41,803 nt of DNA from a virus, in UHGV virus genome UHGV-1359168; one strand, given 5' to 3'. Positions 7,562 through 41,803 of this stretch are shown piece by piece (position 1 is the first letter of the stretch; each line of letters begins with the position of its first letter). The translations under genes and the position numbers were made by a program. The notes under the pieces were generated by a model. The model was not told where the DNA came from. It ran no database searches and saw only the letters and a program-made list of their open reading frames with translations.

Positions 7562-8719
7562 ATGGCAAAACAAAGCACAGGTATCCTTCGATACGGCAAC
7601 GCGCTTGAGCGCAAAGGCTGGATGGTCGAGGGTATGATACAAAAAGCCTCCGAGAGTTTCTGGAGAGGCTTAACAGGCAATAGCCACGACGCAATTATCT
7701 ATCAGAAAAACGATTTCAGCGCAAAAGTAGGTCATAACATCATATTTGACTACAGCGGCAACCTAGCAACTGCCGGCTTTAGAGGTAAAGAGCAGGCGTT
7801 CGGTAACAGCCCAGCGAAAATGAAGTTCAGCGATAGCTTGACCCTAGAGTTTGGACGTTATACTGTAGATAACGGTATGGAGTTCGACGCAGAGGCTATA
7901 GGTGATATTGACCTAAGCACGCACGCAGATAGCCGCGAGAAACTAGCGGACAACTTCGTAAGGGCTAAAGACCAGATGTTCTTTGACTTGGGTCAAGGTT
8001 ATCTAAGAGGACAAGCTCCATCTCACATAATCAGACCTAACGGCAGAGCTAATATAGGTGCGCTTACAGCAGGTGATAAACTTAGCTGGGATTTCCTAGT
8101 TCAGCTAGAAACTACTATCAAAACAGGTATAGGTTACACAGTAGGTAGCCGCAGAAGCCCAATGAAACCGTTTAAATTGGCGGATGGTCGCAAAGTTTGG
8201 TTGCTAGTTCTTGACGCGTTCCAGATTGCTGACTTGCTAGAGGATGAAAAATTCCAGAGAATTTATCAGCACGCTGAAGTTCGCGGTATAGATAACGCGC
8301 TAATTAGCCACAACGTAACACAAGTTGGCTCATTTGTGATTGTAGAGGCTAGCACATTTGCAGGTATGTCTATAAATAACAAACTATTTAAAACAGCGGT
8401 TGAAATCCAAGGACTTCGCACAATCGACGAGCACGGCGTATTTAGCGGAACAGGTAAAGCACATACAGGTAAGGTTGCATCTCGCGGCTTAGTTCTAGGT
8501 GCTGGAGCGTTCCAACTAGGTATGGGCCATACTCCAGACTATAAATTCCAAGAGAGCCAAGACTTTGGTATTACTAGCGAGAGTGCGGTATTGCTTACAA
8601 TGCAGGCTGATAAATGCCGTCTAACAGCAGAAACTGAGGACTATAAAGAGGCCAAAGTAGCTAATATGGACTATTCAGTGGCTGTTATAGATACATTTAA
8701 CGCTAAACTTAGCAATTAA
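7562..8719 (+). CDS. Putative major capsid protein, 385 aa.
   Basis: Strong ribosome-binding site (aaaggaattaaaATG). Size and position after the scaffold-like gene are typical of HK97-fold major capsid proteins. I did not recognise a definitive motif. Confidence 0.5.
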   Translation: MAKQSTGILRYGNALERKGWMVEGMIQKASESFWRGLTGNSHDAIIYQKNDFSAKVGHNIIFDYSGNLATAGFRGKEQAFGNSPAKMKFSDSLTLEFGRYTVDNGMEFDAEAIGDIDLSTHADSREKLADNFVRAKDQMFFDLGQGYLRGQAPSHIIRPNGRANIGALTAGDKLSWDFLVQLETTIKTGIGYTVGSRRSPMKPFKLADGRKVWLLVLDAFQIADLLEDEKFQRIYQHAEVRGIDNALISHNVTQVGSFVIVEASTFAGMSINNKLFKTAVEIQGLRTIDEHGVFSGTGKAHTGKVASRGLVLGAGAFQLGMGHTPDYKFQESQDFGITSESAVLLTMQADKCRLTAETEDYKEAKVANMDYSVAVIDTFNAKLSN

Positions 8720-8732
8720 GAAAGGATAATAA

Positions 8733-9143
8733 ATGGCTAAAACTGTAGATATTTCTCAATATCTTGGGAACAATAAAAAGAATATCGTTGCTTCGGCTGT
8801 TGGCACGGTTAAAATTGCCGCCTTAAAAGAAGCGGGCGTAGCTACCGGGGATAAGATAGTTCTTACTAAAATCCCTGCTAACTCTTTGATTACTGGTGTT
8901 ACGCTAGTAGTTAAAGAGGGTGCTACAGGCGGTAACGTGAACCTTGACGTAAATGGGGCTTCAGTAGCGTTCGATATGGGCACTGCTGGAGTAACAACAC
9001 AAGCTAGTTGGGTTCCTACCGTAACTAAAGACCTTGTAGAAGTTACAGGCGATGTAACTATGGGCGCTAGTAAAGTAGGAGAGGGCTGCGTTGTTATACA
9101 CTTCGTAGAGCTTGAGGGCTATACTGGAACCTTTGTAGGTTAA
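8733..9143 (+). CDS. Small Gly/Thr/Val-rich structural protein, 136 aa; possible capsid decoration or head fiber.
   Basis: Ribosome-binding site aagaaaggataataaATG. The composition is beta-rich (GVTLVVKEGATGGNVNLDVNGASV). It sits immediately after the capsid-like gene. Confidence 0.3.
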   Translation: MAKTVDISQYLGNNKKNIVASAVGTVKIAALKEAGVATGDKIVLTKIPANSLITGVTLVVKEGATGGNVNLDVNGASVAFDMGTAGVTTQASWVPTVTKDLVEVTGDVTMGASKVGEGCVVIHFVELEGYTGTFVG

Positions 9144-26633: not shown

Positions 26634-27496
26634 CAGTCTATATCCTCGATAGATTTATCGTCCCTGATTCTTACAAACGTTGGCTGTATGTATGTAGCTA
26701 AAAGCTGCTCATACTCTACCTCGATAACTTTGCCGATAAAATAATCAGGGCTTTGCATACGCTCATAATCGCTTAAACCGCTACCAACTTGAACAACTCT
26801 TCCCCAACTATCTTTTAAAACTAGGCTACCTATCATACCTGAATATTTACCTGTGCCCTCTGTAACATCTATACAATGTAGGTCGGCTGTAGGTCTAAAC
26901 TTAATCTTGATAGCTGTATTAACCCGCTTACCAGGCTCATAAGTATGGTCTATCTGCTTGCAGTAAATACCCTCGAACCCGTTTCTGACAACTGAATGGG
27001 CTAAACTCTTAGCTTGCTCGATAGTTAAGTCCCATCCGATAACATTAGCGGTATTCATATCTTCAGGCAGTGATAGTTCCTCGTCCATAAGTCTTATTCT
27101 ATCGCTGTAAGCCCAATCCATAACAGAACCATTAAAGTGTAGGATATCAAATACCATAAACTTAAAAGTGCCAATGCACGGTATATTTTTCTCAAAGTTA
27201 CTCCTTAGATTACCAGTGCTACATTTAACGCGGCTCCCTAGTTTGCCATCGGTGTTAGCTATATATTCACACTCGATTATAAAATCGTCCGGGTTATTCT
27301 CTACTAAAAAATCTGCGATTTCTTTAATATAGAACTGCTTACCGCCGGAAGTCCAAAACTCTACATCTCCGTTAAACTTATGTATTTGGACATAGTTACC
27401 ATCGTATTTAGTTGTAGCTATCCATTTATCTCTAGCTAATTTGCTTTGGGCTATATTAGTTATGTCTTTACCTTTACATTGCTCAATCATTGGCAT
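26633..27496 (-). CDS. ATP-dependent DNA ligase, minimal type, about 287 aa.
   Basis: Adenylation motif I TKYDGNYVQI (KxDG), motif IV FEGIYCKQ, motif V AIKIKFRP. The GGAGGA ribosome-binding site favours the ATG at 27496 over the TTG at 27502. Confidence 0.8.
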   Translation of the reverse strand: MPMIEQCKGKDITNIAQSKLARDKWIATTKYDGNYVQIHKFNGDVEFWTSGGKQFYIKEIADFLVENNPDDFIIECEYIANTDGKLGSRVKCSTGNLRSNFEKNIPCIGTFKFMVFDILHFNGSVMDWAYSDRIRLMDEELSLPEDMNTANVIGWDLTIEQAKSLAHSVVRNGFEGIYCKQIDHTYEPGKRVNTAIKIKFRPTADLHCIDVTEGTGKYSGMIGSLVLKDSWGRVVQVGSGLSDYERMQSPDYFIGKVIEVEYEQLLATYIQPTFVRIRDDKSIEDID

Positions 27497-27773
27497 TGTC
27501 AAATCCTCCTCTATTTATTTCTATGGCCTTAGTTATTTGCTTCATAAACTCTAACACTTCTGACGGTTTAACTAGGCTATAGTTATTAAATACGCTAAAT
27601 AAAACGATTATAGAAGCCCTAAATTTTTCGTCCTTTATAGGTAAATCTCCAATGCGTATATAGCCCCATTGTTTAACGCCCATACCTGGATATAACTTTG
27701 TTATATTAACATAGTTATCGTTTTGGAACAACCCTTGACCTGTAATTAGCTCGTATTGGTAATTATTTTTCAT
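27483..27773 (-). CDS. Small protein, family A (96 aa); paralog of 28037..28303.
   Basis: Shares YxYE, WGYI(R/K)(I/L)G and (V/L)KPS(E/Q)VLE(F/Y)(M/I)(K/R)(Q/K)I with the 28037 protein at conserved spacing. AAGGA ribosome-binding site. Confidence 0.6.
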   Translation of the reverse strand: MKNNYQYELITGQGLFQNDNYVNITKLYPGMGVKQWGYIRIGDLPIKDEKFRASIIVLFSVFNNYSLVKPSEVLEFMKQITKAIEINRGGFDNAND

Positions 27774-28052
27774 TTATTTATCCTTAATGATATAATCAAC
27801 TTTATCTCCTAAATCTAGGAAATGTTTGCCAAGAAATACAGCCATTGTAGCTAGTGATATGTCATACATACCAGCAACTCCACATAATGCTGCTAATATT
27901 TTAAGCCCATAAGTTTGCTCTATCTCGCCCTTAGTTTTAATTATAAGCTCACCTTTAAATTTATCTTTCACAAAGCGAGCTATTCTTATAAGTGTAATGT
28001 TATTATTACGATTATAATCATAGCTCCATCTATAAACTATATCTGGTTCCAT
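27774..28052 (-). CDS. Small protein, family B (92 aa); paralog of 28300..28575.
   Basis: Shares I.LIRIA/IIRAS and LK.LA.LC......D.SL........HF with the 28300 protein. Confidence 0.6.
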   Translation of the reverse strand: MEPDIVYRWSYDYNRNNNITLIRIARFVKDKFKGELIIKTKGEIEQTYGLKILAALCGVAGMYDISLATMAVFLGKHFLDLGDKVDYIIKDK

Positions 28053-28303
28053 AGTCCCTCGATATATCCACGTTTTATGCCAGCTGATGGCGATATTTTT
28101 CTTATGTATTCTAGCACTTGGCTAGGCTTTAGCCTCGACCTAGTATTAATTAACTCCAATACCAAATTAAGCCAATCCTCAGATAAAACTAAACCTAGCT
28201 TTATATATCCCCAAGGTTCATTAACACCGCCATTAAGTTCGGAGATAGTTATATACCAGCGCTCGTTTGTATCCTTAACTGCTTCGTATTTATATGTGCT
28301 CAT
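28037..28303 (-). CDS. Small protein, family A' (88 aa).
   Basis: See the 27483 entry. Translationally coupled overlaps on both sides. Confidence 0.6.
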   Translation of the reverse strand: MSTYKYEAVKDTNERWYITISELNGGVNEPWGYIKLGLVLSEDWLNLVLELINTRSRLKPSQVLEYIRKISPSAGIKRGYIEGLWNQI

Positions 28304-28575
28304 TTATTTTCCTGCCCTATACAAAGTTTTATTTTCTCGTGTCTGAAATGTGTAGCTATAACTTCGCTAAGATTTACTAAGCTTAAATCTGTTATTTCAG
28401 CGCATAACGCTAACGATTTTAAAGCGTTATGTAACGCTGTATTATTCATCTCGTTATAATCTAGCTTGATTATAATCGCTCCGATTTCTATACTATCGAC
28501 TGAAGCGCGAATTATAGCTGTAGTTTTTTCGCTAAACATTGAGTTAATAAACTCCACGCCATACTTAGTTTTCAT
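28300..28575 (-). CDS. Small protein, family B' (91 aa).
   Basis: See the 27774 entry. TAAGGA ribosome-binding site. Confidence 0.6.
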   Translation of the reverse strand: MKTKYGVEFINSMFSEKTTAIIRASVDSIEIGAIIIKLDYNEMNNTALHNALKSLALCAEITDLSLVNLSEVIATHFRHEKIKLCIGQENK

Positions 28576-28814
28576 TTTAAATCCTTATAAGGTATATATG
28601 TAACATCAACATATAATCTTAAGCAATATAAGAAATCCTCAAGCTCCAACTTACCGCAATCGGCAACCTCACATAAAGCATAAACTGCTTTCTTATCAGT
28701 AAAAGGAACTGTTAATCTGCCTTCAGGTTTATCATCTATAAACACGTGGATAAAAATAGATGCTGGTCTAGTTTCTACCACGTATCTATGCCTGTTATTT
28801 GTATTGTTATCCAT
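28572..28814 (-). CDS. Small hypothetical protein, about 80 aa.
   Basis: The AGGAGG ribosome-binding site favours the ATG at 28814 (MDNNTNN...) over the track GTG at 28820. Confidence 0.5.
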   Translation of the reverse strand: MDNNTNNRHRYVVETRPASIFIHVFIDDKPEGRLTVPFTDKKAVYALCEVADCGKLELEDFLYCLRLYVDVTYIPYKDLK

Positions 28815-29079
28815 TTGCACTTCCTCCTACTGATACCATATCAAACATCTGATGTAAGGTATTAACTAATGTATCCTTATCCATATTATTGACTTGTATT
28901 AATTTAGTTATTAACTCCAAGATTTTACTTGTAGTATTGCTTGGAGTAACATTTTTAACATCTATAGCCGCAATTTTACTAACTAATAAACCGTTAGGAT
29001 TATATTCACAAAATACAAGCATACTATAAGGGTCTTTATCTGCCACACCTCTTTCTAAAGATACTTTAAAAGTATTCAT
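28807..29079 (-). CDS. Small hypothetical protein, 90 aa.
   Basis: GAGGAGG ribosome-binding site. Its start is adjacent to the stop of the previous gene. Confidence 0.55.
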   Translation of the reverse strand: MNTFKVSLERGVADKDPYSMLVFCEYNPNGLLVSKIAAIDVKNVTPSNTTSKILELITKLIQVNNMDKDTLVNTLHQMFDMVSVGGSANG

Positions 29080-29346
29080 TTAAACCTCCTCAAAATGGAC
29101 ACTATCAAACCAAGCCGATAGATTGTCCATCAGTTCTTTCCTTTGTATCTTATGCTCGTCTATAATATTTAATAAAATATTCAAGGTAACAAAAGCTAAC
29201 TTACTGTTACGGGCTTCATTGTTAATTAAAGCTACAATATTACCTTTATGAATAACACCTTCAAGCTCTTTAAATATAACCTCAGTATTATCGAAGGCTT
29301 CACTGATACCGTGCTCGTATTGCACATCTACAATATAGGTAGCCAT
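29080..29346 (-). CDS. Small hypothetical protein, about 88 aa.
   Basis: GAGGGAG ribosome-binding site; the ATG at 29346 is preferred. Confidence 0.5.
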   Translation of the reverse strand: MATYIVDVQYEHGISEAFDNTEVIFKELEGVIHKGNIVALINNEARNSKLAFVTLNILLNIIDEHKIQRKELMDNLSAWFDSVHFEEV

Positions 29347-29603
29347 CACAACTCCCTCGGCATTACCGCTATATACTCTAGCTCGGTGCTAACTTTAGCG
29401 TCCATCATAGACATTGGCCAGCACTCTGTAGTAGCTTTATGGCATAAATCTAAAATATCAGCAGGCTCTATCTTTCTACCGAACACTAGCGTCCATTGAA
29501 ATTTTCTAGTGCCGAAATTTTCGTAGTAAATAGTTCCAGCAGTCTTAGTCCCATCTAAAATAAAATAATACCTTACTTCTGGTGTTTTATTAGTGAACCT
29601 CAT
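29346..29603 (-). CDS. Small hypothetical protein, about 85 aa (MRFTNKTPEVRYYFILDG...).
   Basis: The in-frame ATG at 29603 has a strong ribosome-binding site (taaaggagaataaaagaATG). The track start at 29654 has none. Confidence 0.5.
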   Translation of the reverse strand: MRFTNKTPEVRYYFILDGTKTAGTIYYENFGTRKFQWTLVFGRKIEPADILDLCHKATTECWPMSMMDAKVSTELEYIAVMPREL

Positions 29604-29625
29604 TCTTTTATTCTCCTTTATCATC

Positions 29626-30195
29626 TTAATGCACCCTGCTGAAAAACCAGCCATCTTTGCGCTTATGCGCTCTATACCCTTTAGCTTCCCAAGCCGCTAT
29701 AATCTCGGCGTCTGTCGGGTTCTTAGATAAAGTAGGTAAAGAAGCTGTAAAATTATCCACCTTTAAATCTTTTGGAGTATTAACTATTTCATCTAGTGTA
29801 GCCTGCTCCATTTCATTAAGTTCTTTTTTCATTTTAGGCACTTCATTACGCTGTAAAAACTCCTGATATAGCCGCTCATAATTAGCGTCAGTGGATTTTA
29901 TAAAAGTCCCAGCTTCATTTAGAAACCCTTTGCGGTCTTTGATATCATTGTAGGCTATCTCTGCGCAGTCAGCTATATTAGAACCAACCAACCTAGCTAT
30001 ATTAACTAGCACCACGAAACAATCGCCAATATCATCTCTGCAATCTTTACCCTTAGCTAGGTTGTCTGCTAGTTCGCCCATTTCGCTCATTAGTTTAAGG
30101 CATTGGGTAACTGCTTTTGAATTAGCTAAGATACCTCTCTCCTCCGACCACTGCTCGATTTTAGTTTGTAGTTCGTTTAAGTTAGGCATTTTCAT
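29626..30195 (-). CDS. MazG-like nucleoside triphosphate pyrophosphohydrolase.
   Basis: All-alpha MazG signature LKLMSEMGELADNLAKGKD...DIGDCFVVLVNIARLVG...AYNDIKDRKG. AGGGAGA ribosome-binding site before ATG 30195 or 30189. Confidence 0.7.
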   Translation of the reverse strand: MKMPNLNELQTKIEQWSEERGILANSKAVTQCLKLMSEMGELADNLAKGKDCRDDIGDCFVVLVNIARLVGSNIADCAEIAYNDIKDRKGFLNEAGTFIKSTDANYERLYQEFLQRNEVPKMKKELNEMEQATLDEIVNTPKDLKVDNFTASLPTLSKNPTDAEIIAAWEAKGYRAHKRKDGWFFSRVH

Positions 30196-30430
30196 TCTCC
30201 CTGTCAAGATTTAGTTCGGCTTTAAGGCTAGCTTCACTATACGGGTGTATAGTTACGCCATAAAGTTTATAAATAAGTTTAGCTTGTTTAAGGCTAATAT
30301 TATACCTATTAGATTTATAAGTAGAAATCATAGAGGCTGATACCCTCAAATGTTTAGAGATTTCTACACCTGTCATACCCTGATTTTCAAGGTCTTCGAT
30401 GTAACTTTGGATAGTTATAACTTTATCCAT
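30182..30430 (-). CDS. Small helix-turn-helix DNA-binding protein (Cro/XRE-like), 82 aa.
   Basis: GMTGVEISKHLRVSASMISTYKSN is a helix-turn-helix pattern. AAGGAG ribosome-binding site. It is the first gene after a promoter-containing intergenic region. Confidence 0.5.
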   Translation of the reverse strand: MDKVITIQSYIEDLENQGMTGVEISKHLRVSASMISTYKSNRYNISLKQAKLIYKLYGVTIHPYSEASLKAELNLDRENENA

Positions 30431-30489
30431 TTCTGCTCCTTTGAATTGTTTTTAATTAAATTTTTCTCTTTAATTACGTTTATTATAAC

Positions 30490-30530
30490 ATAATCTTACT
30501 TAACTTTAACTTAATTTAATATTAAAGTTT
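30490..30530 (-). promoter_or_regulatory. Extended -10 promoter (TGTTATAAT on the minus strand, 30498-30490) with the upstream ttaag/gtttaa-type motif, serving the HTH/MazG/small-ORF operon.
   Basis: Plus strand: attataacataatcttacttaactttaacttaatttaat. Confidence 0.4.
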
Positions 30531-30628
30531 TCTTAAGTGCTTAACGCTTCAAGCGATTTTAATCTTTACTCGACTTATCTATCAAGCTAAAAATTTAAAT
30601 CGCTCTACGCTCACGCAATGCGCTAATT

Positions 30629-31171
30629 TTAGCGTTTATAAACTGCGAGTTTGCGCTCAAATAAATCTATATCATCAACCGCACGGCTAAGGATATTAGA
30701 CATCGTAAGCGAATTATTACCTAGAGATACTTCATTGCTCGCATATTGCTTAACCTGCATAGTATCTGCTAACTTAACTATCAAACTCTCCACACTAACG
30801 CGCCGTTCGTATTCCCTATAAAGCTCATAAATAAAACTAGGGAAGTTCTGAAACATAACATCAGCTTCCGCATCTGCTACAGCCTTAACTAATTCTGGGC
30901 ACATTGTTTTAGTGCTCAAGGTTATATCACCTATAAAACTCTCGGCGAAGTCGTGGATTATAGCCATTTGCACCGCTTTGTTTAAATCGAACTTATAATA
31001 CTTATACAACTCCATTACATAGGTAGCCACAAAGAAACTATGCTCCGCTACTGTTTCGTTAATTATTCTAGGCGTTATTGAATAACGCTGAATAAACTTC
31101 AGGTTATAAACTTTATAAGGGATTGATGGTCCCTCTATTTCATCTCTAGTTAATTCGTCGTAATCCCTCAT
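30629..31171 (-). CDS. HD-domain phosphohydrolase, YfbR-like 5'-deoxynucleotidase.
   Basis: VAEHSFFVATYV ... AIIHDFAESFIGDITLSTK parallels YfbR VSEHSLQVAMVA ... AMYHDASEVLTGDLPTPVK (recalled from memory). Confidence 0.7.
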   Translation of the reverse strand: MRDYDELTRDEIEGPSIPYKVYNLKFIQRYSITPRIINETVAEHSFFVATYVMELYKYYKFDLNKAVQMAIIHDFAESFIGDITLSTKTMCPELVKAVADAEADVMFQNFPSFIYELYREYERRVSVESLIVKLADTMQVKQYASNEVSLGNNSLTMSNILSRAVDDIDLFERKLAVYKR

Positions 31172-31590
31172 TCTATATCCTTATCAGCAACATAACCAAC
31201 ATTAACTACGCCGATTAAAATCTGCTCCAGCTCTTTTAGGTTTCTAGCTACTTGTCCACTCTTAGCTAACATTAGATTAACTTTCTCTATCCCAGGAGTG
31301 TAGTAAATAACCTGTAGTTCGCGAGCATAAGCATAGCCACATTCCCAAAGAGTGCCCATATCTTTACCTGCTGTAGAAGCTATAATAATATCGCTATCAT
31401 CTAGGGCATTTATATTAGTTTGGAATACGTCCTCTAAATCTTGCCCTCTAGCGTTATTGTGCTCTCTAGGGATAAAATTTTTCTTAAAATGCTTTTTAAC
31501 ATAGCCCTCTAACTCGTCGAGGGCTTTTCTTTGTTCTGCTGTAAACCAACCACCTGCTACATAAACCTTAAAATCAAATATTGTCACCAT
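31168..31590 (-). CDS. Nucleoside 2-deoxyribosyltransferase family protein (NDT/Rcl fold), 140 aa.
   Basis: KVYVAGGWFTAEQRKAL set against Lactobacillus NDT IYFGAGWFTDRQNKAY. DMGTLWECGYAYA set against the catalytic-Glu region GLGMELGYALS. NDT sequences are from memory. Confidence 0.75.
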   Translation of the reverse strand: MVTIFDFKVYVAGGWFTAEQRKALDELEGYVKKHFKKNFIPREHNNARGQDLEDVFQTNINALDDSDIIIASTAGKDMGTLWECGYAYARELQVIYYTPGIEKVNLMLAKSGQVARNLKELEQILIGVVNVGYVADKDIE

Positions 31591-32464
31591 CTTTTATTCT
31601 TTTCAATGTTTGTTTAATGTCGCTTTTACGCCTTTCGTAATAGTTCCCTCCTGGAAAATCAGCCCTACGTTTCTGATAAATGCAGTCCTCTGGCTTTAAA
31701 CCTAGAACTACGTTTTCTTGCTTAGGTAAATAAGCTAGGGAGTTATGCCCGCTTAGTGCTGTTTTACAAAAGAACTCGTCCCGTCCACCTATATCCATAT
31801 CTACACACTCCTGCAAGACTGGGTATTTCTTAACTAACTCCAGCCACATAAGCAAAGCTACGATATTATCGCTCTCTGGCTGTATAGCTTCATCTTTGCG
31901 GGTTTTTATAAACGCTATTATATCCTTTAAGCTACCGCTAACATAATAGAAATTGCTCAAGCTTCTCGGTAAAATTGTGCGGGCGTCAAAAATAGATACC
32001 TCTTTACTATCTACCATATCGGCATATAAACGCTTGGCTTCATCGACTATTTCCATATACCTACCAAGAAACTTCTCATTTACCAAAATGCTAGGCTTTA
32101 CCACACAATAATCTCTGCGCATATCGCGGTCGGCGGTGCATTGCGCGCTAAAGCTAAGGGTTCTATGCCTTATAAGGTGTGTAACGTCGATTAAATCCAA
32201 GCCTTCGATTAAAAATGTAACCCTAATAGTTTCTAGTGCTGTAGGTAGCATCTCGCCCTTGAATATAGATTTAACTATCTCCTCTCGGTTATCTATATCT
32301 CCCTCATATACACTATCCCTCCAAGTAGCTGTGGTAAATTCCGGTAAATAACTACAAAGTTCTTTCCAACTTGGACCTGATACTAAAGTAACAGCTATAG
32401 TGTTTATTTGATTTAAATATTCAGTTTCAGGCCTCTCGCCAAATTTAGTTTTTACTCTGCTCAT
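31574..32464 (-). CDS. thyX: Flavin-dependent thymidylate synthase ThyX family protein, 296 aa, with a divergent signature and a C-terminal extension.
   Basis: RVTFLIEG..LIDVTHLIRHRTLSFSAQC set against ThyX FTFHV...VARQWFRHRIASYNELS (the RHR-X7 position holds Cys instead of Ser). ARTILPRSLSNFYYVSGSLKDIIAFIKTR set against [29 protein letters not shown]. Confidence 0.7.
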   Translation of the reverse strand: MSRVKTKFGERPETEYLNQINTIAVTLVSGPSWKELCSYLPEFTTATWRDSVYEGDIDNREEIVKSIFKGEMLPTALETIRVTFLIEGLDLIDVTHLIRHRTLSFSAQCTADRDMRRDYCVVKPSILVNEKFLGRYMEIVDEAKRLYADMVDSKEVSIFDARTILPRSLSNFYYVSGSLKDIIAFIKTRKDEAIQPESDNIVALLMWLELVKKYPVLQECVDMDIGGRDEFFCKTALSGHNSLAYLPKQENVVLGLKPEDCIYQKRRADFPGGNYYERRKSDIKQTLKRIKDGDNI

Positions 32465-32886
32465 TATTTACTCCTTTTCCAATCCTCGTAAGTTTCGATA
32501 GCTAATTTAGTTATATCGCTATCATCTCCAGTAAGTTCTTTAACCATAGCTATAAAGTTTAGGATTTCCTCGTCATCTTGCTGGCTTATACTGCTATCCT
32601 TATTTTCGGCTTCACTAGCTACAGCTGTCAAGGCTTTCTCCACCAAAGTAGCATACCCAGCAATATCGTGCCAAGTATCTATATGGTCTGGAGTTGTAGC
32701 TAAACGGGATAGTTTATTCACGATGTCGTAAATATAAACCATTTGCACTGCGTCTAAACCCTTACCATTAACCGCTAGATGTCTATCCTTGACTAGTTTC
32801 ATAACATTAGCTCTGAACTCAGAACCACCTTTATAATCACCATAAACAGCACCACGCTCCTTAAGCGTTTCATTTACATTACTCAT
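32464..32886 (-). CDS. Small all-alpha protein, 140 aa, possibly of the phage nucleotide-metabolism/modification-associated DUF1599 (Nmad1-like) family.
   Basis: ERGAVYGDY...KLSRL...HIDTWHDIAGYATL is reminiscent of that family. The family call is from memory and uncertain. The CDS itself is well supported by operon context. Confidence 0.3.
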   Translation of the reverse strand: MSNVNETLKERGAVYGDYKGGSEFRANVMKLVKDRHLAVNGKGLDAVQMVYIYDIVNKLSRLATTPDHIDTWHDIAGYATLVEKALTAVASEAENKDSSISQQDDEEILNFIAMVKELTGDDSDITKLAIETYEDWKRSK

Positions 32887-33841
32887 TGTTTTTCTCCTTG
32901 TTAATTTCTGGACGCCATAGATTTAAACTATAGCTATCATTTTCAGGGTCGTAGCTAATCTGGTGCATACTGACCAACCTCATATTTTTAATCGCGTCAA
33001 ACACATCACGCCCTCTAGCTTCGTATTCATTAACTACACGCTCCCAACACTCGGTGGCTGAACTAGCTCCCGCTAAGATTTTATCGGCTGTTTTAGGACC
33101 TACTTTAGCTAAACCGATAACGTTGTCGCCTGTGTCCCCGGTTAAGCACTGTTTGTAGTGGTGCTTCATAGCCTGATCGGGTTCTACCTCGAAAAAAGTC
33201 ATCTTTATCTCGTCTAGGTGATTACCTGCTTTAGTTGTAGTTTCTGCCCTGCTGTAATAGTTAAAGTGTGTCCCTGGTAAAGTATATAGCACGTCTTTAT
33301 CCACCGCACAAAGCAGATATTTATCAGGCTGGGCTTTTTTCTTAGCGATAACCGCATCATCAGCCTCGAAGTCGTAATGGATAAAAGCTTTTTCTGGGAA
33401 CGCTTCAGCCATTTTAACTTTTAGCTCATTTAACCCGTCAGGGCTTTTCATATCCAAGCGATTAGCTTTATACATAGGGTCTATTTTAGTGTATCTAAAG
33501 CTGCCGCGACCAATAGTGAAATGTAACTCCCAATCACTACAACCTGTAGCGTCAAGGATACCCTGTAACTTCTCTAGTGTAGATTGGTAAGCATTATCTA
33601 TATTGCAGATAGCTACAGTCCCAGCTTCAGAGTCGTAAGTTTTCATCGAGCTAATAGTTGCCCACTCCTCGTCTGAATACATAGCCCTGGGTAGCAGTTC
33701 TATAACCTCTTGGTGCTTAGTTACGCTCCCGAAAACTACAGTATCCGCGTCGATTAACGCTATCTTACCGTTTTTAGGTGCGGCTACATCACCATTTTGA
33801 GCTAAGTCAATATCGACCAACTCACCGTCATCAAATTCCAT
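32879..33841 (-). CDS. 5'-3' exonuclease / flap endonuclease (T7 gp6-like, FEN family), 320 aa.
   Basis: KIALIDADTVVF (Asp cluster) and YDFEADDAVIA (the E-A-D-D motif of 5' nucleases). AAAGGAGA ribosome-binding site. Confidence 0.8.
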   Translation of the reverse strand: MEFDDGELVDIDLAQNGDVAAPKNGKIALIDADTVVFGSVTKHQEVIELLPRAMYSDEEWATISSMKTYDSEAGTVAICNIDNAYQSTLEKLQGILDATGCSDWELHFTIGRGSFRYTKIDPMYKANRLDMKSPDGLNELKVKMAEAFPEKAFIHYDFEADDAVIAKKKAQPDKYLLCAVDKDVLYTLPGTHFNYYSRAETTTKAGNHLDEIKMTFFEVEPDQAMKHHYKQCLTGDTGDNVIGLAKVGPKTADKILAGASSATECWERVVNEYEARGRDVFDAIKNMRLVSMHQISYDPENDSYSLNLWRPEINKEKNNE

Positions 33842-38797: not shown

Positions 38798-40159
38798 TTA
38801 ATTTGATAAATAGCACTTCTCACGAGCTCGGCTAATGCTTACATATAATAAGCGCATACGCTCGTTTTGGTCAAAACATCGGCTTAAGTCTTGACTATCT
38901 ACATAAACGTGATTATACTCACTGCCCTGGCTCTTATGTATCGTTACGCAGTGCGCAAAATCTAGTATTGAAACATAATCGCTAATCGTTTTATAAAGCC
39001 GATATTGTGCTTTACTGTCAATGCCCGCTTTGTTTTTCTCGACTAGCTCGCGCCCTATATCCTCGCGGATTTTCTTATTCTCAAACATACCAAAAATTGC
39101 TGGTATAGCTAAGTATTCATCTATCTGATAAAACCTAACAAAATCTAGTTTATTTAGGAACATTAGAGGGTTATATTTAGTATCATAGTTTATAATCCCA
39201 TTAACAGTTTTACAGTCCCACTTCCAAGTGTCGTGTATGTCAGTTATATCTATAAACTGCTTTAGCGTGCTATCGTATAACCTATCGCCAGGCTGCGGCT
39301 GTGCTCGCCCTTGTATTAGCGCATTAATCTCCTGCACGCGCTGATTGGTGTAGGCTATCATAATTTTATCCTCGTCTGTATCTTGTTTATATAACTCAAC
39401 TATATCAACTCCACGTATAAAATCTTCTGTAGGCTCTAAATACGCCTGCTTGCGTCTGCCCTCCATCATATCAACCAGGAGCGCTAGCGGCTTAGTTAGC
39501 GAGTTATGTGTGCGGTGGACGGTCGTTAATTTTCTCCAATACGGCTGATGTGGATATACTGCCGATGGCCCATCTACAGGGCTAAGCTGATTTAAATCGC
39601 CAACATACAGCACTTTTATTGGTGGTATGCAAACTCTGGAGTATGGCTTACCACAGTGCTCACATACAGGCACCACTTCATCGTCTGGTATATCTACGGG
39701 GGTACGATAAGGGTTAGCAGGTATCGTAGCGCACGAGTTTTCGCAATGATTATTAGGGTGCTCCCAGTAGTTCAGCTCTAGTTGGTCTTGGAGCTTACCT
39801 ATAGAGTAGTAGTCTTTCTCTCCCACGAAGCTAAACTCATCAACTATTAGGAGCTGGATATATACCGGCTGCCCAAACTGCATTGTAGTAACTAAGGCTT
39901 TCAGGCTTTTAGCTTTCTCATTGATACCAGGACGCTTTTTAAGCCACGAGTGTAGGGTCGATATGTCTGTATCCTCTGGCAGCTTAGAAACTAGCACATC
40001 TTTGGCTTTGTGGGTGTATGCCACCACTCTATATTTTATGCCCATATCATTAAGCTGTTTAACCACCTCGATTAGTGCTGTAGTTTTCCCGCTCCCTGCA
40101 GGCCCGGTTATAAAGGCCTCGTTTTCTTCAGGGTCGGATAGAAAATGATGTAAATCCAT
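38798..40159 (-). CDS. SF1B helicase (Dda/RecD/Pif1-like), 453 aa, with a Cys-cluster insertion.
   Basis: Motif I FITGPAGSGKTTAL, motif II LLIVDEFSFV, motif III YVGDLNQLSPV, motif V/VI VTIHKSQGSEYNHVYV. Insertion HCENSC...CEHCGKPYSRVC is a putative zinc ribbon. Confidence 0.8.
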   Translation of the reverse strand: MDLHHFLSDPEENEAFITGPAGSGKTTALIEVVKQLNDMGIKYRVVAYTHKAKDVLVSKLPEDTDISTLHSWLKKRPGINEKAKSLKALVTTMQFGQPVYIQLLIVDEFSFVGEKDYYSIGKLQDQLELNYWEHPNNHCENSCATIPANPYRTPVDIPDDEVVPVCEHCGKPYSRVCIPPIKVLYVGDLNQLSPVDGPSAVYPHQPYWRKLTTVHRTHNSLTKPLALLVDMMEGRRKQAYLEPTEDFIRGVDIVELYKQDTDEDKIMIAYTNQRVQEINALIQGRAQPQPGDRLYDSTLKQFIDITDIHDTWKWDCKTVNGIINYDTKYNPLMFLNKLDFVRFYQIDEYLAIPAIFGMFENKKIREDIGRELVEKNKAGIDSKAQYRLYKTISDYVSILDFAHCVTIHKSQGSEYNHVYVDSQDLSRCFDQNERMRLLYVSISRAREKCYLSN

Positions 40160-40193
40160 TGTATCCTCTCTTTATCATTTATTTAATATTATA

Positions 40194-40230
40194 TTATAGC
40201 GAAATTAAACTTAACTAAAGCTTAATCTCG
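40194..40230 (-). promoter_or_regulatory. -10 element (gcTATAATat on the minus strand) with a gtttaatttcg-type upstream motif between the primase/helicase and SF1B helicase genes.
   Basis: Plus strand: aatattatattatagcgaaattaaacttaactaaagcttaatc. Confidence 0.3.
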
Positions 40231-41803
40231 TTATCATCGTTTGTTTGCTCTGTTTCAGGCTGGGCTATAGCTTCGACCGTGTCAAGCTTTGTATAAGGCC
40301 GGCTAAACTCTATTACATACACATTATACGGCTTTTTATTTTTATAATGTGTTACCCTGCGTTTATACTTACCTATTTTTGACTTTATCTCTATCGCCGA
40401 GAAGTGGCTATCTAACAGCTCAATCAGCGATGGTAGCCCCAGCTCTTTTGTCGCGCTCGTGTTATAGAACACAGCTCTTGCCTGGTCAGTGGTCGAAACC
40501 TCAAACAACCTATCTATATCCTGCATCGGGACTGCGCAGTCCTCTGTTAAGACTTCAAGTAGTTTTGTGTGGTCTTTATTCTCCGCCGCTTCAAGCAATT
40601 TATCTAGCGGTGTGGTCGTGGCCTCTATATACTCGGCATAATCCTCGTTTTTCCAATTACTGTTGTCCTTATAATCCTCGTTTGATAACGGCTTAAGTGA
40701 GCGCAAATAAGCCGCAAAGTGCGGTAAGTCTGATATTAGCGCATTGTAAAACGCTGTAGTGTCAGGGTATACCTTAGCTAGTTTAGTCGGGCATTTAAAT
40801 AGCACTAGCCTTCGGTCATTCTGCGCTATATCCGTTATAAGCTTAGTCTGCATATTTGTATTTAGGATTGGAGTCATATAGTGGCGTTGAGGTGCCGTCG
40901 TGTCTTTACCCTTTTTAGTTATCGACACGAGTGGAGAGCCAGTAATTTTCTTTAGCTCTGCCACCAGCTTCGCCTGCTCGTTCTTAGTATCTCCCTCGCC
41001 CGCTTCATCTATTATGGCGTAGTCGGTTTCTCCCATCCACTTATTAAACCCGTTAGTTAGCGAGCTCACATTGACTTTATATATGCGCTCAGTTGTGGAG
41101 AAATATGGCAGGACGTTATCTATGAACATATTTTTACCAGCTCCACCTACGCCCGCAAACACGAAGTAGAGGTCAGAGTGGTCGTAGGTAGAGTGCTTAC
41201 GACCCAGAAACCTACAAAACCTATCTCGGTTGTCGGCGTCTGGTATAAGGTGTTTGAGCAGAGCTAAGATAGTGTCCGGCTGCCGCAGGTTGGTAGGCTC
41301 CAGCTCTCCACGCAATATCCTAATGCCCTCGCTCGGCTGGTATGTGTTGAACAGCGGGTCGCGCTGGACTTGTGGAATAAGGCCGGTCGGGTATTCAGGC
41401 GTATGAACTATGGTTACAACTCGGACTTTCTTAAGCAGCTTCTCGGTGGTTACTTTTAGGCGAAGTTTGCTTTCAGTCAGGACAGTATTCATCACCGCGC
41501 TGGTCTTGTCGTAGGTGTGATACTCCTGCGTCTGTCTGTTATGGTGAATATACAGCTGCTTTACAGGGTCGAAAAACACCTCTATAATGTCGCTATACTC
41601 ATTCTCATATATAAACCCCTCTTTCGCCCAGTCTGGATTATACTGCCACAGCGGTTTGTTAGTTAGTGGGTTTATGCGCTTATTTATATCATAGTTACAG
41701 TCGTGGATAACCCTCTCTTCAGGCATCGGGCTCTGCCACAGTGAGTTAAGCAGGAGCATAAAGTCCTGAAACTGCTCTTTAGACACCGATGGGTCCTGAG
41801 CTA
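40215..41803 (-). CDS. C-terminal part of the primase/helicase: SF3/D5-type NTPase domain, with the open reading frame continuing upstream of the window end. It is probably one gene with 1..763(-) if the genome is circular.
   Basis: Walker A FVFAGVGGAGKNMFIDN. There is no stop between the track's GTG start at 41786 and the window end. The frame is contiguous with the PrimPol ORF across the 1/41803 junction (...SVRFK-L-AQDPSVSKEQF...). Confidence 0.65.
   Translation of the reverse strand, partial: AQDPSVSKEQFQDFMLLLNSLWQSPMPEERVIHDCNYDINKRINPLTNKPLWQYNPDWAKEGFIYENEYSDIIEVFFDPVKQLYIHHNRQTQEYHTYDKTSAVMNTVLTESKLRLKVTTEKLLKKVRVVTIVHTPEYPTGLIPQVQRDPLFNTYQPSEGIRILRGELEPTNLRQPDTILALLKHLIPDADNRDRFCRFLGRKHSTYDHSDLYFVFAGVGGAGKNMFIDNVLPYFSTTERIYKVNVSSLTNGFNKWMGETDYAIIDEAGEGDTKNEQAKLVAELKKITGSPLVSITKKGKDTTAPQRHYMTPILNTNMQTKLITDIAQNDRRLVLFKCPTKLAKVYPDTTAFYNALISDLPHFAAYLRSLKPLSNEDYKDNSNWKNEDYAEYIEATTTPLDKLLEAAENKDHTKLLEVLTEDCAVPMQDIDRLFEVSTTDQARAVFYNTSATKELGLPSLIELLDSHFSAIEIKSKIGKYKRRVTHYKNKKPYNVYVIEFSRPYTKLDTVEAIAQPETEQTNDDNEIKL

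Follow-up and report, generated by a model that had tools for sequence, protein, structure and literature searches.

We analyzed the 41,803-nt genome of gut phage UHGV-1359168, referred to here as the window, in which a cluster of nucleotide-metabolism genes lies at positions 29,626-32,886. Six contiguous minus-strand ORFs occupy this interval exactly where an initial annotation had placed them, and domain HMM searches back them as real genes. Upstream, a 5'-3' exonuclease gene (32,879-33,841, minus strand; phrog_107, 9.6e-45; 5_3_exonuc, 3e-6) heads a chain of overlapping genes. It overlaps by 8 nt the gene for a 140-aa DUF6378 all-alpha protein (32,464-32,886), which shares 1 nt with the gene for a ThyX-like flavoprotein paralogue (31,574-32,464; 296 aa); this in turn overlaps by 17 nt a nucleoside 2-deoxyribosyltransferase (NDT) gene (31,168-31,590; 140 aa), followed after a 4-nt overlap by the gene for an HD 5'-deoxynucleotidase of the YfbR/HDDC2 type (30,629-31,171; 180 aa). 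An AT-rich intergenic gap of 198 bp, read from the sequence (30,431-30,628), divides this chain from the genes for a small helix-turn-helix (HTH) protein (30,182-30,430; 82 aa), a MazG-like protein (29,626-30,207; 193 aa) and orf102. A sigma-70-like match (10/12) at 30,585-30,556 inside the gap is a suggestion only of a putative promoter; shuffled sequences give promoter-like matches at least as often as the region does. The cluster had been described as five enzymes with a regulator; we count four enzymes, with the HTH protein and a DUF protein alongside.

The proposed NDT and ThyX assignments both held in HMM searches, the former against Nuc_deoxyrib_tr (PF05014, 2.5e-15) and the latter against Thy1 (PF02511, 2.4e-16). 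The NDT-family protein carries both the GGWFTAEQ and the DMGTLWECGYAYA motifs. The strong matches of its family profile are to true NDTs (6evs, 1.1e-22; 1s2d, 4.9e-12; 1f8x, 1.2e-8); DNPH1 (4e-4) and the CMP N-glycosidase 4jen (0.04) lie far behind. Y10, D77, E83 (in D-x-G-T-x-[WF]-E-x-G) and N105 are invariant in the NDT alignment, and a C-terminal Glu is almost so. Judged by these profiles and residues, the phage protein is a genuine nucleoside deoxyribosyltransferase, not an N-glycosidase.

The HD/YfbR-like assignment likewise stands (HD_3, 1.5e-21; YfbR-like, 1.7e-17). The nearest solved structures are 2cqz, 1xx7, HDDC2 (4dmb), YGL101W (5yox) and YfbR (2paq), and an alignment with them displays the H...HD...D metal motif. 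In marine lineages the HD protein is swapped for a non-homologous NT5C/HAD nucleotidase; NT5C is described by Pfam as a pyrimidine deoxynucleotidase, and NT5C-type nucleotidases prefer dUMP and dTMP. This non-homologous replacement points to selection on the dNMP-to-deoxynucleoside step itself. The MazG-like call found support in PHROGs (phrog_1992, 6.7e-38; phrog_715, 8.3e-27) but not in Pfam, where MazG scored under the threshold (0.004; 17.8 bits, cut-off 22), and the protein had no sequence match in PDB. Its MazG-like domain is the all-alpha N-terminal ~110 aa, followed by a C-terminal ~80 aa; in other lineages dUTPase_2-like proteins take the role of this pyrophosphohydrolase. The HTH domain just clears its cut-off (HTH_3, 6.3e-5; 23.4 bits versus 23). 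Homologues of the HTH protein are restricted to close relatives (cluster c24, 10 loci), as is the window-type MazG. By this distribution, the would-be regulator is a lineage-specific add-on outside the conserved unit.

A resemblance to DUF1599/Nmad1 had been suggested for the 140-aa all-alpha protein. It matches DUF6378 instead (PF19905; 1.4e-6, 28.9 bits, cut-off 27.1), with no DUF1599 match in the Pfam search. The DUF6378 profile has no significant match to DUF1599-like domains, MazG or dUTPase_2, and its AF2 model (six helices, all-alpha, pLDDT 77.6) has no fold match in PDB. Residues 1-88 form a conserved core; an acidic linker then leads to a C-terminal helix. In PolA-type lineages (28 loci) the gene directly precedes that of the ThyX-like protein; in representative loci of lineages that lack it, a thymidylate-kinase-like gene occupies the same position, and the two occur together in none of the representative loci examined. 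DUF6378 is probably a ThyX accessory.

The ThyX-like protein carries the motif T-H-L-I-RHR-x7-C-T-A-D-R-D, present here with RHRTLSFSAQC. Its AF2 model (pLDDT 91, pTM 0.90) matches only ThyX and PolB in Foldseek, at 17-20% identity, and the family profile matches PDB ThyX weakly (~3e-5). Aligned with T. maritima ThyX, the protein keeps E58, R78-H79-R80, R147 and R174, and changes H53 to L, Q75 to H, E86 to A, S88 to C, R90 to A and Y91 to D. The Arg aligned with R174 is invariant in the family. We take H53 of the T. maritima enzyme to serve in folate stacking and R174 to contact uracil O4; an Arg there should presumably disfavor the cytosine amino group. Roles in canonical ThyX chemistry have been described for Ser88, Arg90 and Tyr91, of which S88 and Y91 are strictly conserved, critical and located beside the flavin carbinolamine hydroxyl (PMC11940539). 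By alignment and model, the paralogue retains the ThyX fold, the RHR flavin/nucleotide motif and the nucleotide-contacting Arg equivalents R147/R174, and in the same alignment residues tied to canonical chemistry (Ser88, Arg90, Tyr91, His53) are replaced. Because the nucleotide- and flavin-binding positions are intact by alignment, plain dTMP synthesis is chemically possible. Uracil, as opposed to cytosine, we infer as the substrate only from the retained R174 equivalent and the neighboring genes.

The Ser-to-Cys change in the RHR-X7-S signature, read in the initial annotation as a hint of altered chemistry, is genuine in that the Cys aligns with Ser88 of T. maritima ThyX. Taken by itself the change is weak evidence, because it is one among several substitutions, Gly occupies the signature position in 29 of 183 family members, and in 3 there is no Cys at either of the two candidate positions. 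Position 88 is Cys in one solved chain of T. maritima ThyX (3g4c), a mutant that we take to retain activity. The C-terminal extension also proved real (~80 aa) and is conserved family-wide. Acidic residues D112, D114 and D118, in a remodelled substrate loop, are specific to the family.

Recurrence of the module across viruses

Relatives of the ThyX-like protein were found on 172 IMG/VR contigs, all viral, and none was found in ~185,000 cellular genomes of a one-genome-per-species collection; by these searches the clade is virus-restricted. Lineages were counted after dereplication, which left 26 with enough flank. An NDT gene lies next to the ThyX-like gene in 25 of them, a 5'-deoxynucleotidase is present in 24 (HD in 18, NT5C fused to a dUTPase_2-like domain in 6), an all-alpha NTP pyrophosphatase in 18 and a kinase in 11. 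NDT is the most constant partner (73/81 related loci); where present it is always on the same strand as the ThyX-like gene (73/73), at a distance of ≤100 nt in 40 loci. Three replication backbones carry the module: PolA, PolIII-alpha and PolB.

As controls we used loci with a canonical ThyX. NDT occurred in 11/12 of those that also have the paralogue versus 0/67 of the remainder (Fisher p=2e-9, with the paralogue-free group limited to the 31 loci of ≥12 kb), and neither NDT nor HD was ever seen near a canonical ThyX in control loci without the paralogue. A canonical ThyX also lies within 10 kb at at least 13 ThyX-like loci, including two close relatives of identical synteny (L015 and L019), and ThyA at one. 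At these loci it is the paralogue that NDT adjoins, rather than the canonical gene. The clustering goes far beyond chance, and gene neighborhoods strongly support a real functional link among NDT, nucleotidase, pyrophosphatase and variant ThyX, together an uncommon grouping, the first three of which had been singled out as unusual for a phage.

Some relatives carry additional enzymes. In Geobacillus phage GR1 the block comprises NDT, thioredoxin, HD, an alpha-glucosyltransferase homologue (phrog_2888, 6.2e-53), a thymidylate-kinase-like kinase, RNase H, nitroreductase and the ThyX-like protein (UDY80709), and the GR1 annotation lists no other thymidylate synthase. The fusion protein P0145 (GT2-like::ThyX-like) adjoins NDT and kinase; its GT2 domain scores 22.1 bits, under the Pfam cut-off of 23.3, with no PDB match. 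L033 is a kinase::NDT fusion. A dCMP deaminase gene is adjacent at 8 loci, and glycosyltransferase linkage is limited to about three lineages. The kinase, glycosyltransferase and dCMP deaminase are all absent from the window phage.

The gp130 family of phage SP-15 is a separate ThyX offshoot (in hhalign, 94% to canonical ThyX and 35% to the ThyX-like family). The two families are independent of each other, both ThyX-derived and both with NDT neighbors. Genes of the gp130 type lie beside or near NDT/HD/MazG in GXN1, Vibrio 1.031.O, SP-15 and Carin-5, and the family is present in SP-15 (near NDT), YerA41 and Carin-5. Thymidine hypermodification is experimentally established in these last three phages, in which the gp130-type protein is hypothesised to be an hmdUMP synthase (PMC5977210, PMC9023294, PMC12686479).

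Restriction sites and thymidylate synthase in the window genome

The window genome (37% GC) contains 3 GATC sites versus ~98 expected, 0 CATG versus ~97 and 2 GTAC versus ~119. Given such extreme avoidance, type II restriction enzymes can evidently still reach the phage DNA. This pattern argues against a bulky substitute for all T or all C in the window lineage, and fits ordinary or only lightly modified DNA. No thymidylate synthase other than the ThyX-like protein was found in the window genome, so it could simply be the phage's dTMP synthase.

Discussion

The reading we favor, tentatively and with slightly less than even confidence, is that the module is a virus-specific pool-remodelling pathway making a 5-substituted pyrimidine nucleotide, with a neofunctionalised ThyX paralogue at its core. 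The MazG-like enzyme would strip a canonical pyrimidine dNTP (most likely dTTP, and dUTP) to the dNMP, the HD nucleotidase would convert this to the deoxynucleoside, and NDT would shift deoxyribose between bases (e.g., dT + uracil to dU + thymine), clearing thymidine from the salvageable pool with the sugar saved. Thymidine kinase, from the host or phage-encoded as in GR1, would restore dUMP, which the ThyX-like flavoenzyme would turn into a 5-substituted dUMP, instead of or besides dTMP. The product would most likely be 5-hydroxymethyl-dUMP, with 5-hydroxy-dUMP as the alternative, and would then be incorporated in phage DNA. In relatives, the thymidylate-kinase-like kinase, dCMP deaminase and glycosyltransferases would complete the route; because the window phage lacks them, any modification there would be small and unglycosylated. 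Canonical ThyX in relatives with HD and NDT (L015, L019, L043) fits, at most, partial rather than complete thymidine replacement. A precedent for the proposed pool exclusion is phage phiW-14, in which a dTTPase removes dTTP while hmdUTP is made (PMC5977210).

The main rival, which we consider possible but somewhat less probable, holds that the ThyX-like protein is a divergent genuine dTMP synthase and that NDT, HD and MazG feed deoxyribose into dU/dT and clean the pool, boosting dTTP for a 37% GC genome from surplus or host deoxynucleotides, with canonical DNA as the outcome. The Thy1 match, RHR motif and R147 and R174 equivalents agree with it, as do the protein's position as sole thymidylate synthase in the window, the site avoidance expected of unmodified DNA and the existence of a Cys88 chain (3g4c). 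Relatives' dCMP deaminase, dUTPase-like protein and thymidylate-kinase-like kinase are classical dTMP-pathway partners, and an Asgard-virus dUTPase-ThyX-Nmad1 block has had the same reading. However, 13 or more loci retain canonical ThyX as well, among them loci of 40-kb relatives that share the synteny, and canonical ThyX alone is never accompanied by NDT and HD. The paralogue has different residues at positions described as strictly conserved and critical in ThyX enzymes that form dTMP. Its clade did not turn up in cellular genomes, whereas genuine thymidylate synthases are freely exchanged between hosts and phages. Glycosyltransferases within or fused to the module in some lineages, and a pyrophosphatase::nucleotidase fusion that looks like nucleotide removal rather than supply, also speak against it.

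An unlikely variant directs the ThyX-like enzyme at cytosine, turning dCMP into 5-hydroxymethyl-, 5-hydroxy- or 5-methyl-dCMP, with the pyrophosphatase as a dCTPase and a host or phage canonical ThyX supplying dTMP, a route like that of T4, RB69 or XP12 transferred to a ThyX scaffold. The paralogue's coexistence with canonical ThyX and dCMP deaminase follows the pattern of T4-type hmC phages, the GR1 glycosyltransferase matches a T4-type alpha-glucosyltransferase PHROG, and the family-specific D112, D114 and D118 lie in the remodelled substrate loop; as a precedent, ThyA paralogues of phages have become flavin-dependent 5-hydroxy-dCMP synthases, and the product they make is glycosylated (PMC13326640). 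Against this, the R174-equivalent Arg is invariant, dC replacement calls for neither a nucleotidase nor an NDT, and these would be competitors for dCMP, NT5C is a pyrimidine deoxynucleotidase by its Pfam description, and the modification linked to the parallel gp130-type family is of thymidine, not cytosine. Less probable still is the release of a modified base or nucleoside as an antimetabolite, signal or anti-defense molecule, modelled on the MilA/MilB and bacimethrin genes, where a TS-like enzyme modifies a pyrimidine nucleotide. The pairing of TS-family and NDT-family proteins is a hallmark of those antibiotic pathways; the order ThyX-like, nucleotidase, NDT would yield free 5-substituted uracil, and in the window phage a modified dNMP would find no kinase to take it further. 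Yet in profile comparison the phage NDT falls among the true transferases and apart from the N-glycosidases DNPH1 and 4jen, the module lies within replication gene blocks, and relatives' thymidylate-kinase-like kinase and DNA-type glycosyltransferases point to incorporation in DNA. That independent auxiliary metabolic genes sharing no pathway came together by chance might be argued from the tendency of nucleotide-metabolism genes to gather in phage replication modules and from the lineage-specific HTH protein and window-type MazG. The idea is effectively refuted by the recurrence of the ThyX-like/NDT/nucleotidase trio, found in 24-25 of the 26 lineages across three replication backbones unrelated to one another, by gene overlaps, domain fusions and non-homologous replacement within the module, and by the absence of the trio from control loci.

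The initial annotation had left two readings side by side, and dT-boosting salvage stays viable. DNA base modification has more support, because the paralogue coexists with canonical ThyX and has replaced residues reported to be critical in methyl transfer, because relatives add glycosyltransferases and a thymidylate-kinase-like kinase, and because a second ThyX-derived family occurs in thymidine-hypermodified phages. The module recurs in >100 uncultured viruses; its more probable product is an unusual DNA pyrimidine, the less probable one extra thymidine.

Results

The block of genes that we analyzed (29626-32886, minus strand) lies in a roughly 42-kb podovirus-type genome, with terminase, major capsid protein and portal among the plus-strand genes and a minus-strand replication module of helicases, ligase, PolA, 5'-3' exonuclease, gp2.5-type SSB and primase. 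An initial annotation had delimited six ORFs here, and its coordinates proved exact. HMM searches against Pfam and PHROGs upheld its assignments of an HD protein (30629..31171), a nucleoside 2-deoxyribosyltransferase (NDT; 31168..31590), a ThyX homolog (31574..32464, 296 aa; hereafter ThyX-like) and a helix-turn-helix (HTH) protein (30182..30430), the last being borderline (HTH_3, 6.3e-5 in Pfam). The genes for the exonuclease, a 140-aa all-alpha protein (32464..32886), ThyX-like, NDT and HD form an overlapping chain, and a 198-bp AT-rich gap separates this chain from the genes for the HTH protein, a MazG-like protein (29626..30207) and orf102. We note that orf102 (29346-29654, 102 aa) overlaps the MazG-like ORF by 29 nt and is kept only in close relatives. 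Beyond it, seven back-to-back minus-strand ORFs (27483-29349) overlap slightly and encode about 82-96 aa each; they include at least two paralogous pairs: 28037-28303 with 27483-27773 (E=1e-9), and 27774-28052 with 28300-28575 (E=0.005). A scan of the cluster region for promoters and terminators returned nothing above chance, and a megablast search with the region as query gave no match among 50,697 phage genomes.

ThyX-like matched PF02511 at 2.4e-16 (60.5 bits, cut-off 24.8) and solved ThyX structures at 0.004 with the single sequence and about 3e-5 with a family profile. Its AF2 model (pLDDT 91) has the same fold as canonical ThyX: the top Foldseek matches in the PDB were all ThyX or PolB, at 17-20% identity and with TM-scores of 0.6-0.75 on the target, the PolB structures 4p5a and 4p5b being among the best. 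A large protein database contains at least 387 relatives; they have about 300 aa, and most come from contigs of 40-46 kb. An exhaustive profile search gave 69 representative clusters at E<=1e-30, and 172 IMG/VR contigs of 40 to 236 kb encode relatives. Human-gut viromes are a source of contigs from the 42-kb lineage of the window, e.g., IMGVR_UViG_3300045988_103975. Among the 50,697 deposited phage genomes, tblastn retrieved only the cultured Geobacillus phage GR1 (OK896991; host G. stearothermophilus ATCC 10149). A scan of 185,579 bacterial and archaeal species, at one genome per species, yielded zero relatives. ThyX-like is a distinct ThyX paralog clade found only in viruses.

The members share the motif [T/C]-H-L-[I/L]-RHR-x-x-S-F-S-A-x-[C/G]-[T/S]-[A/G]-D-R-D, and a C-terminal extension of about 80 aa is kept throughout. 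The family departs from the RHR-X7-S signature: RHR is present, and the position of Ser88 (T. maritima numbering) is Cys in the window and, across the family, Cys in 153 of 183 sequences and Gly in 29. Relative to T. maritima ThyX, E58, R78-H79-R80, R147 and R174 are kept, which contact nucleotide and flavin in the T. maritima structures; in ThyX-like, the counterparts E78, R99-H100-R101, R162 and R189 vary little or not at all among 80-90 sequences. The replaced residues are H53 (Leu), Q75 (His), E86 (Ala), S88 (Cys), R90 (Ala/Gly) and Y91 (Asp), and hhalign could not align the loop after the signature Cys to ThyX. In ThyX, S88 and Y91 are strictly conserved, critical and located beside the flavin carbinolamine hydroxyl, with R90 next to Y91 (PMC11940539). 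Hence the Ser-to-Cys change singled out in the initial annotation is real, and because S88, Y91 and R90 are replaced alongside others, it is only one element of a wider remodeling of the methyl-transfer machinery. In one clade, the signature Cys is Gly, and in 26 members (P0067, P0073 and others) a Cys instead lies four residues before RHR; three other members of this clade (P0072, P0106 and P0112) have Cys at neither position. We dropped this relocation (T...C versus C...G) as covariation evidence, since it occurs in a single clade and could reflect one event only.

We then considered the partner proteins. NDT matched PF05014 at 2.5e-15 (57.1 bits, cut-off 28.8). Against the PDB, its family profile matched true transferases (6evs, 1.1e-22; 1s2d, 4.9e-12; 1f8x, 1.2e-8) and was far weaker against N-glycosidases (DNPH1, 4e-4; CMP N-glycosidase 4jen, 0.04), and on these scores we set aside an Rcl/DNPH1- or MilB-type N-glycosidase reading. 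Among 22 diverse members, Y10, D77, E83 and N105 never vary and the terminal Glu rarely does, and these residues align with the corresponding ones of 6evs and 1f8x. In terms of the L. leichmannii NDT, they would be the N-terminal Tyr, the Asp, the catalytic Glu of D-x-G-x-x-x-E-x-G, the Asn of (F/I)N(L)M and the C-terminal carboxylate. Since NDT matches true transferases and keeps the catalytic positions, it should act on deoxynucleosides, the predicted product of the adjacent nucleotidase. That neighbor, the HD protein, matched HD_3 (1.5e-21, 77.4 bits) and the YfbR-like family (64.1 bits) (PF12917, PF13023). Its nearest solved relatives (2cqz, 1xx7, HDDC2, YGL101W and YfbR) all belong to the YfbR/HDDC2/YGL101W group of dNMP 5'-nucleotidases, and its H...HD...D metal motif (AEHSF, IIHDFAE, KLAD) aligns with theirs. 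It also matched phrog_7076, which is annotated as dATP triphosphohydrolase.

The remaining two assignments fared less evenly. The MazG-like protein matched phage MazG PHROGs strongly (6.7e-38 and 8.3e-27) but fell below threshold in Pfam (PF03819, 17.8 bits, cut-off 22); SEMGELAD...DDIGD is readable in the sequence, and a sequence search of the PDB gave no match. The C-terminal ~80 aa of this protein (29626-29950) have no domain match. The 140-aa protein had been called DUF1599/Nmad1, an identity that we rejected: Pfam gives DUF6378 instead (28.9 bits, cut-off 27.1), with no DUF1599 (PF07659) match at E<=0.1, and hhalign against the DUF1599-like domains fused to ThyX proteins was not significant. 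Structure prediction and a fold search of DUF6378 found no fold relative.

To describe the neighborhood, we called and clustered ORFs in 81 viral loci with ThyX-like relatives. Dereplication at an identity of 80%, and a requirement for 2.5 kb or more of flanking sequence to either side, left 26 lineages. NDT is present in 25 of the 26 and a dNMP nucleotidase in 24, which is of the HD type in 18 lineages and of a marine NT5C/HAD type, fused to a dUTPase_2-like pyrophosphatase, in six. An all-alpha NTP pyrophosphatase occurs in 18 lineages, a thymidylate-kinase-like P-loop kinase (phrog_761) in 11 and DUF6378 in nine; a dCMP deaminase adjoins the module in eight loci. NDT and ThyX-like share a strand in every case; the two genes are at most 100 nt apart in 40 of 73 loci and overlap in 21. 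The module is carried on PolA-type, PolIII-alpha-type and PolB-type replication backbones. That the non-homologous NT5C stands in for HD in some lineages shows that selection acts on the dNMP-to-deoxynucleoside step itself.

Domain fusions tie the parts of the module together. These include the dUTPase_2-like::NT5C nucleotidase of locus L060 (8943-9905) and other "c2 long" members (~310 aa), a thymidylate-kinase-like::NDT protein of 329 aa (L033, 8392-9381), and a GT2-like::ThyX-like protein of 551 aa, P0145, encoded beside NDT and kinase genes (L084, 7726-9381). The GT domain of P0145 is just below the Pfam threshold, and a sequence search of the PDB gave no firmer assignment. A DUF1599::ThyX fusion occurs in the more canonical P0264. 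Ten lineage-specific genes lie between or beside ThyX-like and NDT in marine loci; they are mostly unannotatable, with one DUF7487 match and one FkbM-type methyltransferase match. In marine loci (e.g., L046, L051, L054, L071, L077 and L080), an Fpg/Nei-type DNA glycosylase (20 loci), an NAD-dependent sugar epimerase (27 loci) and a conserved 78-aa protein (cluster c7) also recur close to the ThyX-like/NDT pair, no more than a few kb away.

As a control for specificity, we collected 79 viral loci centered on canonical ThyX. The paralog was present in 12 of these, 11 of which have NDT, whereas NDT or a window-type HD was found in none of the 67 loci that lack it. For the Fisher test (p=2e-9), only those of the 67 with a length of 12 kb or more, 31 in all, served as the comparison, and its p-value overstates independence, as the control loci are phylogenetically related. 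Thus, the NDT partnership is specific to the paralog as opposed to canonical ThyX. A canonical ThyX (RHR-x7-S-x-R-Y, 214-250 aa) lies within 10 kb of the paralog in 13 of the 81 loci (L015, L019, L026, L043, L059, L067, L070-L075 and L081), and a ThyA-type enzyme in one (L035, 9597-10340). Two of the 13, L015 and L019, are close relatives with the gene order of the window, yet carry canonical ThyX. The control set contains 12 further co-occurrences, some on contigs already counted. Where both copies are present, NDT abuts the paralog and not canonical ThyX. The window genome has no second thymidylate synthase besides ThyX-like.

In GR1, the block runs NDT, thioredoxin, HD, glycosyltransferase, kinase, RNase H, nitroreductase and ThyX-like. 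The glycosyltransferase matches a phage alpha-glucosyltransferase PHROG at 6e-53, and the GR1 annotation contains no thymidylate synthase other than ThyX-like (UDY80709). The ThyX-like gene of the GR1 group is followed by one for a 151-aa protein (phrog_35203). Elsewhere the GR1 record carries a second annotated NDT, an amidoligase and gamma-glutamylcyclotransferase pair, and a thymidine kinase (8491-8973, 40057-41289, 41597-42169); the amidoligase pair might play a part in further base modification.

A parallel case is the family of gp130 from Bacillus phage SP-15. By hhalign, its probability is 94% to canonical ThyX and 35% to the window family, and the gp130 type is a second, separately derived ThyX offshoot. 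Its members have 384-413 aa and no RHR motif. A gp130-type gene directly follows NDT and a YfbR-like HD in Streptococcus phage vB_SagM-GXN1 (L086, 4992-7341), lies between HD and NDT near MazG in Vibrio phage 1.031.O (L085, 3081-7688), and is two genes from an NDT in SP-15 (L167, 4001-7182). It is beside a pyrophosphatase in Cobetia phage Carin-5 (gp049; L169, 5326-7176), and Yersinia phage YerA41 encodes one as gp081 (L168, 5920-7083). An ACP-like or FabG-like reductase gene lies near the gp130 type in the Vibrio phage, SP-15 and Carin-5. Like the window family, then, the gp130 family is a divergent phage ThyX derivative near NDT, a YfbR-like HD, and MazG or another pyrophosphatase, and SP-15 resembles the paralog-bearing loci in that gp130 coexists with a canonical ThyX (gp9). 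Unlike the window family, the gp130 family belongs to large myoviruses with proven thymidine hypermodification. Such hypermodification is experimentally established for SP-15, YerA41 and Carin-5, and gp130-type proteins were proposed as 5-hydroxymethyl-dUMP-forming enzymes, a hypothesis of those authors (PMC5977210, PMC9023294, PMC12686479).

Finally, we examined restriction sites. The window has three GATC sites (12260, 21626 and 33175) against about 98 expected, no CATG against about 97, and two GTAC (30 and 39702) against about 119; GGCC is halved, and GTTAAC, ATCGAT and ATGCAT are absent. This avoidance is common to close relatives (L004 and L009; L015 and L019 for GATC and CATG), mild in GR1, and slight or absent in most marine carriers of the module. 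It indicates that type II restriction enzymes still have access to window DNA, at sites in which all four bases occur, and this argues against a bulky substitute for each T or C in the lineage. Canonical DNA would fit the avoidance, as would a small modification, e.g., hydroxymethyluracil.

Discussion

The module is a putative nucleotide-pool remodeling unit for phage DNA, built on a ThyX-derived family, and both the family and its fixed NDT/nucleotidase partnership are undescribed in the literature that we searched, where we also found no description of GR1 itself or of an NDT-ThyX link. The initial annotation had interpreted the cluster as either a dT-boosting salvage route or part of a base-modification pathway, and our results support that interpretation in part.

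We tentatively favor a role in remodeling the pool toward a modified pyrimidine, to which we give somewhat less than an even chance. Under this proposal, the pyrophosphatase and nucleotidase would together degrade a canonical pyrimidine dNTP to its deoxynucleoside, dTTP being the most plausible substrate. NDT would shift the deoxyribose to another base, e.g., uracil, so that thymidine would leave the kinase-accessible pool with its sugar conserved. A thymidine kinase, annotated in GR1, would return dU to dUMP; the ThyX-like flavoenzyme would turn dUMP into a 5-substituted dUMP that would then be built into DNA; and the thymidylate-kinase-like kinase and glycosyltransferases would act downstream, where present. 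Four points lead us to favor uracil over cytosine: the R174 equivalent is invariant, Pfam describes NT5C as a pyrimidine deoxynucleotidase, dCMP deaminase and dUTPase-like proteins are among the neighbors, and the parallel gp130-type family is thymidine-directed. A cytosine-directed variant is improbable. The phiW-14 dTTPase, which acts alongside hmdUTP synthesis, is a precedent (PMC5977210). Among the components of an hmU-type pathway, candidates for both the dUMP-modifying TS-family enzyme and the dTTP/dTMP-removal enzymes are present and conserved, and the kinase occurs only in relatives.

The main rival is plain dTMP supply and salvage, with ThyX-like simply serving as the dTMP synthase of the window phage, which we regard as doubtful but a serious possibility. 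The window phage has no other thymidylate synthase and lacks the kinase and glycosyltransferase of its relatives, and its near-total avoidance of GATC, CATG and GTAC fits canonical DNA. Coexistence of the two ThyX types cuts both ways: the loci that also carry canonical ThyX, in which NDT abuts the paralog, point to a role of the paralog other than making dTMP, whereas canonical ThyX beside HD and NDT in L015, L019 and L043 speaks against complete exclusion of thymidine. The GR1 block, which joins a glycosyltransferase and a kinase to ThyX-like, NDT and HD, also argues against dTMP supply. Other readings take up the remaining probability.

Pool clearing of this kind is known from the Z-genome, in which MazZ (a MazG-type pyrophosphatase) and DatZ (an HD hydrolase) reshape the pool beside the replacement-nucleotide enzyme PurZ. 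The window cluster shares that logic, but the Z-genome has a purine target and no NDT, and DatZ is a dATP triphosphohydrolase while the HD protein here is of the YfbR/HDDC2 type. We rejected a Z-genome-like reading because there is no PurZ homolog among the annotated window ORFs and the nearest solved relatives of HD are dNMP nucleotidases. MilA/MilB and the bacimethrin enzymes BcmA/BcmB likewise pair a TS-family enzyme with an NDT-superfamily enzyme; unlike in the window, the NDT-like partner is a nucleotide N-glycosidase and the TS partner is ThyA-type. T4 gp42, the phiW-14/SPO1 dUMP hydroxymethylases and RB69 gp48 are TS-family paralogs that make a modified dNMP, as proposed here, but have an unrelated fold with a catalytic cysteine by design. 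To our knowledge, such ThyA-type phage hydroxymethylases and hydroxylases are not linked to an NDT or dNMP nucleotidase as a fixed unit. The modified dNMP from ThyA-type phage enzymes passes to a dedicated kinase and glycosyltransferases while dNTPases remove the canonical competitor (PMC13326640, PMC5977210). That phage ThyA paralogs became flavin-dependent 5-hydroxy-dCMP synthases whose product is glycosylated (PMC13326640) indicates that such enzymes readily change their C5 chemistry.

Canonical ThyX (T. maritima TM0449, M. tuberculosis ThyX) shares the fold, the Thy1 domain, RHR and the E58/R147/R174 equivalents with ThyX-like, which differs in its low identity (17-20%), six replaced residues, ~80-aa C-terminal extension and restriction to viral contigs. 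PolB, a ThyX paralog recruited to the polyoxin pathway (PMC5954106), is the only characterized neofunctionalized ThyX paralog, and resembles ThyX-like as a second ThyX copy recruited to specialized C5-pyrimidine modification. PolB differs in being bacterial and serving antibiotic synthesis, and it has remained a methylase, acting on UMP and dUMP; the literature covered reports neither an NDT nor a nucleotidase as its partner. Among the routes that we found, all those proven biochemically to yield 5-substituted pyrimidines in phage DNA are ThyA-type, and for a ThyX-derived route there are only conjectures, made for the SP-15 type.

A stronger, joint claim would combine a new catalytic branch of the ThyX superfamily, an undescribed thymidine-to-uridine loop and a non-canonical pyrimidine in more than 100 phages; as a whole we consider it rather unlikely. 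ThyX-like would then no longer make thymidylate; with the aid of its flavin, and possibly of the new active-site cysteine, it would instead add a hydroxymethyl or hydroxyl group at C5 of dUMP, while NDT and the nucleotidase, as a fixed unit, would turn thymidine nucleotides back into deoxyuridine. If so, well over a hundred uncultured gut, marine and thermophilic phages, together with GR1, would contain a non-canonical pyrimidine, and the route to it would have no relation to the known ThyA-type hydroxymethylases.

This work defines a virus-only ThyX paralog clade and its fixed four-part partner set, and the cultured member GR1 makes the prediction directly testable. Should the product be only dTMP, the module would still be a previously unrecognized, widespread salvage design. 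Should the prediction hold, it would establish new enzyme chemistry on the ThyX scaffold, the first physiological role for phage NDT enzymes, and a sequence marker in viromes for modified DNA, which matters for sequencing bias, for the evasion of restriction and CRISPR, and for phage engineering.
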